Part shown: positions 54,373 through 57,300 of the stretch, one piece after another
Layout: each line of letters opens with the position of its first letter
Numbering within the stretch: position 1 is the stretch's first letter
Assembly: GCA_051294375.1 (NCBI GenBank)
Contig: CM119271.1
Coordinates: 2,060,677-2,124,676 of the forward strand
DNA from: Paraspadella gotoi
Lineage: Eukaryota; Animalia; Chaetognatha
Length of the DNA: 64,000 bases
Direction: 5' to 3'
Position numbers and translations under genes: made by a program
Notes under the pieces: generated by a model
Seen by the model: only the letters and a program-made list of their open reading frames with translations
Told to the model about the DNA's origin: nothing
Databases searched by the model: none

Positions 54373-57300
54373 CTACGACTCCTCCTCCGCCAAAAGTCTC
54401 TTCTTCTTTCTATTGATTCGCCGACTCTCCTTTCGCTTTCCGAACTCCGTTTTCCCGAGTCGAACTTCGATCTGCTTCTTGGCCACGTTGATCTTCACCA
54501 GATTCGCCAGGACTTCCTTCTCGTTGACTTTGTGCTCGCTTAGACGAACTTTGACGAGTCCTTGAGCGAGAGAGAGAGAGAGAAAGAGATTATTAATTAT
54601 AAGGTCACAAAATGAAACCAGTTTTCGACTGAGTTAACAGAAAACGACTGCCTCACGTCCATCATCGTTCAGCCAATCCCATTGGCTCAGAGGGGGAACG
54701 AACGCACCATCCCAAGCGTGGTGTTCCATTCCATAGTCCTAACGACTTCCCTCTGCGTTGGCAAAGCGAGACCGTCCTAGGGTAACCACGCCAGTGACAG
54801 GAGGCGTCACTGAGAGTCGGAAGCCCCCAAAAGCCAACAGTGAGATGCCCCATCTCAATGGGCACCACAGGCAACCCGGCTGTTGCCATAGAACCTCCAT
54901 TTCGGTGAGAAGAGTTTTGAGGTTTTGAAAAATACGTCCATTGTGGTGGTATATTCACACCGCCTCACGTCCGTCATCCTTCAGCCAAATCCATTGGCTC
55001 AGAGGGGGAACACACCATCCCAAGCGTAGTGTTCCATCCACAGTCCTAACGACTTCCCTCTGCGTTGGCAAAGCGAGACCGTCCTAGGGTAACCGCGCCA
55101 GTGACTGGAGGCGTCACTGAGGGTCGGAAGCCCCCAAAGCCAACAGTGAGATGCCCCATCCCAATGGGCATCACAGGCAACCCGGCTGTTGCCATAAGTG
55201 GTGAGCCCTACTATCGAACACGCAACCTTCTCAGGGTACGCTACGACAAACGCCTATGCCCTGCCGACTTCGGGTACGCTACGACAAACGCCTATGCCCC
55301 TGGGGTACGCTACGACAAACGCCTATGCCCCACAACTCGCGCTCTCTCTCTCTCTCTCTCTCCCACTATGGTAACAGTCTTGTCAGACACCTCTCAGGCT
55401 TGAGGAACCCGAGTGATGTCTTGGCCCGGGGATCCTGTGGTGGTATATTCACACCGCCTCACGTCCGTCATCCTTCAGCCAAATCCATTGGCTCAGAGGG
55501 GGAACACACCATCCCAAGCGTAGTGTTCCATCCACAGTCCTAACGACTTCCCTCTGCGTTGGCAAAGCGAGACCGTCCTAGGGTAACCGCGCCAGTGACT
55601 GGAGGCGTCACTGAGGGTCGGAAGCCCCCAAAGCCAACAGTGAGATGCCCCATCCCAATGGGCATCACAGGCAACCCGGCTGTTGCCATACCATCTTTAT
55701 TTAATGTATTATTTTTTATTTATCTTCTTTTCGTCTTTTCATACAATTGAAACATTCTTTGAAATATTATACCACTTCATTGATAGGGAAGCCAGGTTCA
55801 CTGGGAGTGAATAAACAAGTCTGTGAGAGAGGCTTGATTAAAAGCTTGCAGAAACCTGTTATGTTATTATCTTGCAAGTATGATGGAGGCCTTAAACCAC
55901 CAAAGCCTGTCCAAAGTCAGGGACAAGATAGCTTATTTATTAAAAGGATGGATAATTTTTATATTGGTTGTACCAATTTCATATATTAAATTTTAAACAA
56001 TACGTCCATCTTTAACGTTTTATTTATATTATATTTCAAAATATAATTATAAATCATATCGCTATCACCTTCGATGGCGTGAAGCAGTTTGATGTCGTGC
56101 TCGGTGATGATGGTGAGGGCCTTTCCACCGCGACCGGCTCGAGCCGTACGACCCACCCGATGCACGTAGACCTTTGGCTGCGTGGGCAGATCGAAGTTGA
56201 CGACGAGGTCGACGGTAGGGATGTCGAGACCACGAGAGGCCACGTCCGTCGCTACCAAAAACTTTTTCTGAAGCGAAAAATGAAATAAAAAAGAAATGAC
56301 GAATAGGGCTGACGTCGAATCGAAAAGAAATGGCGAATAGGGCTGACGTCGAATCAAAAAAAAATGACGAATAGGGCTGACGTCGAATCGAAAAGAAATG
56401 ACGAATAGGGCTGACGTTTATTCCCCGCGAAATTCGGCAAAAATTGTTATCCGCTTTCTCGGAATTAATCAAGATGATATAATTTATAAACAAAATCAAT
56501 CCAACTCGGTACTCGTAATTTAATTCAATTCGCCGAGTCAAATTGTTACAACAACTCGTCGGTGAAGCAGAAGAAAAAGAAATCAGTGTCACTGAAGGTC
56601 GAGACTCCGCCCGAAAACTCGGGAAGGCGGCGAAAAGGTCGGGGAGCCGCGGCCGCCGGATCTTCCTCGGCCCGGCCCGCTTACCTGTTTCGACTTGAAC
56701 GCGTTCAGGGCGGAGAATCGATTGGTTTGACTCATCATCGAATGCAAGGCCGCGCACTCGAACCCGCACTTGATCAGTAGACGGGAAAGAATTTGACAGG
56801 TTCTGCGGGGGGGCGAAAGATAGACGAAACGATTATTTGAATAGTTAATCAATTTTACGTTAAGGTTAATTTAAGGGTTTTTTTTTCTATTTAATTTTCA
56901 CCTGCAAGTCTTTGTGAAGATGATGCAGTTGCTGAGAGGCTTCTCTTCACGAAACTCTTTGACGATTTGGATGAGGTTGGGTTCCTTCACCTGAAAATCG
57001 AGAGAAGAAAAAAAAAGTTAATCGGATTGATTTTAGGTCCGACGTGACGAGTCGCTGATTTGGTTTTGATTTTTTTTTTAAATATTTTTTTTTATTAAAG
57101 AAATATTTTGATGTCAATAGCTAGCCTTTAACTAACCGTAATCATACCCGTAACCTAATGTCCCCTTCAACCCAACCAATTAAACTTTAACCACGAAAAT
57201 CGTAAATTACATTTTTTAAGGAAAAAAACGAATCGGGACCGACAACAGCATTCAACCCTACTGTTCCAGACCGATCTTATTTTTTTTGGGTTAAAAAAGA

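Follow-up and report, generated by a model that had tools for sequence, protein, structure and literature searches.

A 749-bp non-coding insertion in the 64-kb window (i.e., the whole stretch of DNA analyzed here) raises the question of whether an animal LTR element can carry a self-cleaving twister ribozyme in each of its LTRs and, if so, how such an element would multiply. An earlier note on the same DNA had described a TRIM of 749 bp with two identical 255-bp LTRs, a CCAT TSD, a PBS-like TGG just after LTR1 and no ORF, and these features were recovered in the present analysis. The element shows an LTR-internal-LTR layout on the forward strand. LTR1 (54942–55196), at both termini of which loose contig ends pile up, and its copy LTR2 (55436–55690) are identical in 255 of 255 nucleotides and lie 494 nt apart, and comparison of both sides gives the TSD copies CCAT at 54938–54941 and 55691–55694. 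Each LTR runs from TG to CATA, the terminus being CATA and not CA, and consists of a 5′ hairpin, Pol III-type boxes, the twister motif and 3′ hairpins. The internal region (55197–55435; 239 bp, non-coding by sequence analysis) contains a PBS-like site (55199–55211), the TGG of which begins at 55199, 2 nt past LTR1, three 29-nt repeats (55234–55331), a CT microsatellite and a weak PPT of five purines ending 3 nt upstream of LTR2. By eye, the PBS best matches tRNA-Trp (11 of 13 positions) among the tRNA ends given in Fig. S2 of Kojima. The claim on coding capacity holds in the sense that no long ORF was found in the 749 bp, where the longest ATG-started frame has 95 codons and the longest stop-free stretch 117.

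The LTR kind of this element, designated family A, is one of at least three related families in the window. Its dispersal was examined by placing assembled contigs of four of twelve sequencing runs on the left flank, LTR1 and the internal region, the last 108 nt of which were left out as masked repeat. In the DNA run X4, 8782 contigs match this stretch. Contigs come loose before 54940–54942 (32, 24 and 35 contigs) and behind 55196–55197 (99 and 123 contigs), and the sequence beyond these points is mixed and AT-rich, with a flank agreement of 0.43–0.45. Because the loose ends pile up there with mixed flanks, the ends of family A coincide with the called ends of the element. Summed contig depth, which is not copy number and is taken only as “very many”, amounts to 1.6–2.1 million over the LTR, 0.6–0.85 million over the covered internal part and 130–380 over the flank. 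Family A is a dispersed, very abundant family. Its element has the features of a TRIM, i.e., a length below 1 kb, two LTRs, no coding region, a TSD and dispersed copies sharing its ends; an exact 4-bp repeat flanks four of the five insertions checked in the window, the exception being a copy at 54630. Family A is a real, recently active TRIM. A sister family, designated family B, shows similar dispersal and abundance in runs X1 and X5, and no family B contigs were found in run X12. Matching contigs numbered two in run X10 (organism B) and five in run X11 (a biofilm metagenome), from which no inference on host range or habitat is drawn. Further loose ends lie behind 55227 in all four runs and, in X11, also before 55188. 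By eye, they look like the end of the family B LTR, which in those few contigs joins the same PBS and a different internal region; as far as so few contigs can tell, this suggests that family B, too, is a complete TRIM and shares its primer with family A. One X11 contig with the order internal-LTR-PBS was considered as evidence for a circle or tandem and was rejected, as a collapsed repeat looks identical.

Regarding the ribozyme, the motif of LTR1 lies at 55064–55144 on the forward strand and was recognized by descriptor, pairing and covariation as a P5-permuted twister with a P3 stem, a general-base guanine at G55077 and a predicted cut between U55090 and A55091; the motif of LTR2 (55558–55638) has its predicted cut between U55584 and A55585. 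The earlier claim that all twister elements occur in P5-permuted order proved right, and the order agrees with that in Table 1 of PMC8501958. A pairing-aware descriptor, which requires the core residues and the pairing of T1, P2 and P4, matches the window in LTR1, in LTR2 and at one minus-strand site belonging to family B. The same descriptor has no match in 19.2 Mb of resampled window or in 8 Mb of sequence of LTR composition, and a relaxed form has none in 7.7 Mb. A second twister-like loop string at 55018–55025 was rejected by eye, its parts being in the wrong order. RNAalifold applied to whole LTRs did not recover the twister except for P3, and the element contains no Rfam hammerhead match.

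The comparison with Rfam, which the earlier note had named as a check by asking for a twister covariance model hit, gave a divided answer. No LTR copy in the window has a match at the Rfam gathering score, which is a database threshold and not a biochemical definition of twister, and family A yields only a partial twister-P1 match (15.2 bits, E 8.5). The full Twister-P5 model (RF02684), on the other hand, aligns to family B with 22.2 bits and E 0.025 (gathering score 37.6), scoring the long P3 as an insertion. Strand order and core residues agree with RF02684; the model differs in lacking a long P3, and families A and C have no significant match to it. The missing gathering match is not taken as refuting the assignment, since the full model matches a sister LTR despite the inserted P3.

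The sister families provide a further test of the structure. Family B is represented by a solo LTR of 257 bp on the minus strand (35009–35265; TSD ATAT), 63% identical to family A, with A and B boxes and a fully paired P5-type twister at 35143–35061. It was first located by a descriptor that required part of the pairing and is also a plain blastn homolog of family A (E 3e-10 to 8e-10); its MFE fold is the twister fold. Family C, a forward-strand solo LTR of 238 bp (60478–60715), has TG...CATA termini, A-like and B boxes and a P5-type twister (60603–60678) with a 3-nt P2 strand and a weak P1; its TSD, ATAA, is weaker evidence because the flank is AT-rich. Family C was located at 60609–60670 (28.7 bits, E 7.8e-5; runner-up 10.9 bits) by a covariance model trained on family A, an upstream A-like copy and family B, with family C outside the training set, and Rfam gives no match to it at all. 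All three families, A, B and C, begin with TG and end in CATA, have 4-bp TSDs and carry the twister in the same P5-permuted form. The A-like copy is an older LTR on the forward strand (54630–54890), 51 bp upstream of the 749-bp element, which is 92% identical over 244 nt (54647–54890), differs in its first 17 nt, lacks a TSD and has two extra stem mismatches (P2 and P4). A decayed relative, D, at approximately 35878–36050 on the forward strand retains the 5′ hairpin and the 5′ half of the twister, and no TSD was found around it. In addition, the first 26 nt of the family A LTR occur alone as a TG...CA hairpin between ACTA repeats (43304–43329, forward strand; within 43300–43333), possibly as a minimal or aberrant insertion.

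Between families A and B, 28 pairs were compared: 18 are the same, six are changed on both sides, two are changed on one side and two are mismatched in family A, while family B forms all 28. Redrawing the changed letters reached this degree of pairing in 28 of 200,000 trials; on the 22-pair core, five pairs are changed on both sides, a count reached by six of 500 shuffles. Over P5, T1, P3, P4 and T2, families A, B and C form 21, 22 and 22 of 22 pairs, respectively, with 11 of the 22 changed on both sides; P2 and P1 were left out of this count because the P2 strand of family C is one nucleotide short and its P1 weak. The T1 pseudoknot occurs in three different paired versions, T1 and T2 are fully paired in all three families, and GA, UAA and U...AAGC are invariant, so that the twister core residues, including the GC of T2, are all present. 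Judged by covariation among three families from one window, the LTR carries a structurally conserved, putative P5-type twister common to at least three divergent families of one genome. The pseudoknot covariation and the full-length Twister-P5 match of family B, together with the empty descriptor searches (27 Mb of resampled sequence, 7.7 Mb for the relaxed form), leave scarcely any credence for a chance look-alike of twister within a structured LTR, an explanation that the missing Rfam gathering match would favor and that is already largely refuted. The central claim of the earlier note, namely that a recent TRIM carries a twister in both of its LTRs, is thus well supported by the contig ends and abundance and by covariation with two divergent sister families.

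Structural conservation does not by itself define the present state of the family A ribozyme. Its motif contains a C·A mismatch at the first P2 pair and an A·C mismatch at the outer P4 pair, both family-wide, as no variant of 5% or more occurs at those positions in X4. In addition, its MFE fold (−31.5 kcal/mol) is a rival structure 11 kcal/mol below the nested twister fold (−20.5 kcal/mol; pseudoknots not modeled). These two features are what would be expected if the ancestral twister and the twisters of families B and C were functional but family A had only an inactive relic and were now spreading as an ordinary TRIM. Against such decay, family A keeps the catalytic residues and both pseudoknots, T1 and T2, and has its own compensated pairs in T1, P1, P2 and P4. 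According to large-scale assays, imperfections of P1, P2 and P4 are tolerated, including P2 and P4 mismatches in natural and mutant twisters, whereas changes of the pseudoknots or catalytic residues are harmful (PMC11662667, PMC5113685), and family A carries no change of the harmful kind. Variation among family A copies points in the same direction. In X4, variants of 5% or more occur at 12 of 75 upstream positions outside the boxes, 0 of 21 box positions, 2 of 7 P3-loop positions, 0 of 74 twister positions outside the P3 loop and 0 of 52 positions 3′ of the motif; within the twister, variation is therefore confined to the P3 loop (2/7 vs. 0/74, p 0.006). Such variants mark subfamilies and are not independent, and the P3-loop contrast is the only structure-specific one, since the 52 nt outside the twister are also invariant. 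Part of the contrast may be the ordinary difference in variability between U3 and R/U5, and the conservation of the boxes is not significant (0/21, p 0.06). A relic in family A thus appears quite improbable, and by analogy with the assayed twisters its ribozyme is expected to be functional, perhaps slowed.

The earlier note overlooked the Pol III-type boxes as well as the sister families, its twister-TRIM part being supported. In family A, an A-box-like motif (54995–55005, forward strand; pattern match), putatively part of a Pol III internal promoter, has a core common to families A, B and C and follows a shared CCATTGG in all three; the B box comes next, upstream of the twister. The B-box-like motif of family A (55030–55039, forward strand), recognized by eye against families B and C, is imperfect, and a strict B-box pattern has no match on this LTR, whereas the B box is canonical in family B (35165) and family C (60581). 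The box consensus used agrees with the wording of PMC10886601. Even with relaxed scores, ARAGORN detected no tRNA at the boxes, so that a tRNA origin of the boxes is not established; the relaxed hits were discarded, being located on the twister hairpins. No run of four T occurs inside the LTRs of the three families or in the 749-bp element, and the first T run past the predicted family A start is at 55712, in the flank. The imperfect family A B box, the missing tRNA fold and the apparently Pol II-type LTR promoter of a tobacco retrozyme (PMC12029980) are compatible with a twister retrozyme whose transcript is made by Pol II, either from a promoter in the LTR or through read-through, with the boxes as relics of a captured SINE head. 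As the boxes hold the same position ahead of the twister in three families, the B box is canonical in two of them and no T4 run interrupts the LTRs or the element, Pol II transcription of this kind is considered very improbable.

Transcribed sequence of both families is present in run X9. This run represents spliced RNA, because a contig joins the exons around family B and skips the intron 34980–35318, and the depth over the intron flank 35279–35316 is 0–0.3. X9 yields 556 contigs on the family A stretch and 284 on the family B stretch, which indicate presence only and not strand, ends, level or circularity. The depth is higher over the 3′ half of the LTR, although contig depth cannot rank parts.

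Taken together, the element is somewhat better explained than not as a Pol III-driven TRIM, the transcript of which would be cut by its twisters to a 494-nt unit, circularized and copied by a Gypsy-type helper. Pol III transcription would start a few bases before the A box (approximately 54985), run through both LTRs and stop at the first T run of the flank, at 55712. Cleavage between 55090 and 55091 and between 55584 and 55585 would release a 494-nt monomer with a 5′-OH and a 2′,3′-cyclic phosphate and without a terminal repeat, which a host ligase would close into a circle. RtcB would be a candidate for this ligase, as the earlier note proposed. A tRNA would prime at the PBS of the circle, the helper reverse transcriptase would cross the joint rather than jump strands, and integrase would insert the element with a 4-bp TSD. 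Since the 494-nt unit lacks a terminal repeat, its reverse transcription would need a circle, as proposed for plant retrozymes, the published model of which has no R region and includes a circle (PMC4918200). The Gypsy type of the helper is deduced from the 4-bp TSD and the tRNA-3′-end type of the PBS (PMC10886601), and no Gypsy-type helper element was seen within the window. When folded, the circular monomer is only modestly more stable than shuffled sequences (z −1.9; 4/100).

A linear route without a circle would use the same parts differently. Given the two mismatched stem pairs of the family A twister and its rival fold, an attenuated ribozyme or such a route is possible: the twister would be active but partial and would form the 3′ end in place of a Pol III terminator, and molecules cut only in LTR2 would keep a terminal repeat of approximately 100 nt (about 54985–55090) for ordinary strand transfer. 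This would account for the lack of a T4 run in the LTRs of families A, B and C, given that most of the published animal Helenus LTRs compared have a T-rich run after the B box, and for the weaker-looking twister of the most abundant family, A. However, as the same ribozyme lies in both LTRs, only a fraction of the transcripts would be cut once at the right end, and family B, with its fully paired (28/28) twister, is also abundant. The linear route is therefore rated unlikely, though it deserves more weight than a relic ribozyme, and cleavage to a circular unit is retained as the preferred reading.

Among known systems, plant LTR retrozymes (Cervera et al. 2016, PMC4918200) are close in design. 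They share with family A a non-coding LTR element with a self-cleaving motif in each LTR, a 4-bp TSD, a PBS (PBS-like in family A), solo LTRs and a predicted unit-length RNA without an R region. They differ in that their ribozyme is a type III hammerhead, whereas family A has a P5-permuted twister with P3 in an animal host; their unit is roughly 600–1000 nt instead of 494 nt; and family A has Pol III-type boxes, a weak PPT and a PBS not established as tRNA-Met. Accumulation of unit-length circular RNA, a mark of plant LTR retrozymes, is only predicted for family A. By analogy, family A would work like a plant LTR retrozyme and yet is not one, having no hammerhead. Helenus elements (TRIMp3; Kojima 2024, PMC10886601) are TRIMs of similar size with A- and B-box motifs in the LTR, a 4-bp TSD in animals, several families per genome and a Gypsy-type PBS, and family A fits the Helenus criteria of a 4-bp TSD and a length of 311–1263 bp (PMC10886601). 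In the animal Helenus LTRs compared, the terminal ACA closely follows the tRNA-like part and a T-rich run is usually present (PMC10886601), whereas here a twister follows the boxes, no T run is present, the end is CATA and no tRNA fold is detectable. The Helenus report nowhere mentions twister (PMC10886601), the consensus sequences compared show no twister core, and a string search of its supplement, in which line breaks can hide matches, gave no matching terminus or twister loop in context.

Twisters have been tied to invertebrate retrotransposons in the Perere-3 variants of Schistosoma (Liu et al. 2021, PMC8501958) and in RTE elements (PMC7761336). In those cases, an autonomous non-LTR element carries one P1-type motif at its 5′ end (PMC8501958, PMC7761336), whereas here a P5-type motif is present twice, once in each LTR of a non-autonomous element. 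Animal non-LTR retrozymes (PMC7761336; bioRxiv 10.64898/2026.07.22.740005) resemble family A as non-coding animal elements with two ribozymes around a small unit, but carry type I hammerheads in tandem repeats, have no LTR, PBS or PPT and are linked to Penelope-like elements. In the literature, LTR retrozymes are hammerhead-bearing elements of plants, and the retrozymes of animals belong to the non-LTR kind (PMC7761336, bioRxiv 10.64898/2026.07.22.740005); in July 2026 LTR retrozymes were still called primarily plant and hammerhead-based (bioRxiv 10.64898/2026.07.22.740005). One plant study reports enrichment of type-P1 twisters with Copia and Gypsy elements (PMC11933835); this passing remark gives an association of twister with LTR elements some precedent.

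No twister-bearing TRIM or animal LTR retrozyme was found in the accessible text of the literature covered, which also takes in PMC5680766, PMC6154101, PMC6765202 and PMC13725137, whereas Repbase, Dfam, the lists of Roth et al. 2014 and subscription journals lie outside this scope. Within that literature, a layout with a ribozyme in each LTR is otherwise found only in plant elements with a different ribozyme. In sequence collections, the exact family A core has no match among metagenome contigs. A loose twister pattern matches at least 118 loci in viral contigs, and none of the 118 matches listed passes the pairing descriptor; tighter patterns give three metagenome and two viral loci, all without similarity, pairing or an Rfam match. 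Thus, no relatives beyond the source organism were found in the metagenome and viral contig collections. That families A, B and C represent an undescribed, diversified group of animal LTR retrozymes, which would have arisen independently of the plant elements and would combine a Pol III promoter, a P5-type twister, circles of approximately 500 nt and Gypsy machinery, is a tentative proposal held at slightly less than even confidence.

If this proposal is true, the layout with a ribozyme in both LTRs evolved on at least two occasions, each time with another catalyst, which would show that the ribozyme class is interchangeable and that selection acts on the processing step. The TRIMp3 and retrozyme designs would be joined in one element, and twister would have a defined role in LTR retrotransposition. 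What twisters do biologically is still largely open (PMC8501958), and their role is directly testable here in a very abundant natural element whose divergent families are built-in controls. From the element, a small and abundant circular RNA is also to be expected, which would escape standard circRNA and TE pipelines as well as Rfam thresholds. More speculatively, loss of the Pol III 5′-triphosphate together with circle formation would hide the RNA from end-sensing helicases, e.g., RIG-I.

In keeping with an animal host, the window also contains spliced genes, which encode a fucosyltransferase, a TBC protein and DED/RIG-I-like helicases. A protein search with the fucosyltransferase gave matches at only 35–46% identity, the named ones being from arthropods and molluscs. 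The helicase genes form a tandem array with death-effector domains (DED, Helicase_C and RIG-I C-terminal domain) at approximately 29000–45000 on the minus strand. The combination of DED with a RIG-I-like helicase appears to be an unusual domain pairing. The family B solo LTR sits sense-oriented in an intron of one RIG-I-like helicase gene, so that co-transcriptional cutting by its twister could affect the host gene, the spliced mRNA of which is still present in X9. A 782-aa open frame on the minus strand (51946–54294) with internal repeats and a coiled-coil-like end has no Pfam match and is presumably TACC-like. Downstream of the 749-bp element, 55889–55987 matches 37155–37264 in inverted orientation at 77%, and the 16 nt at 55999–56014, approximately 300 bp downstream, equal the sequence across the insertion site of the element; on account of these two matches, the target of the element may lie in another small repeat. 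Farther downstream, a 34-nt tandem repeat of approximately five units occupies 56284–56451.
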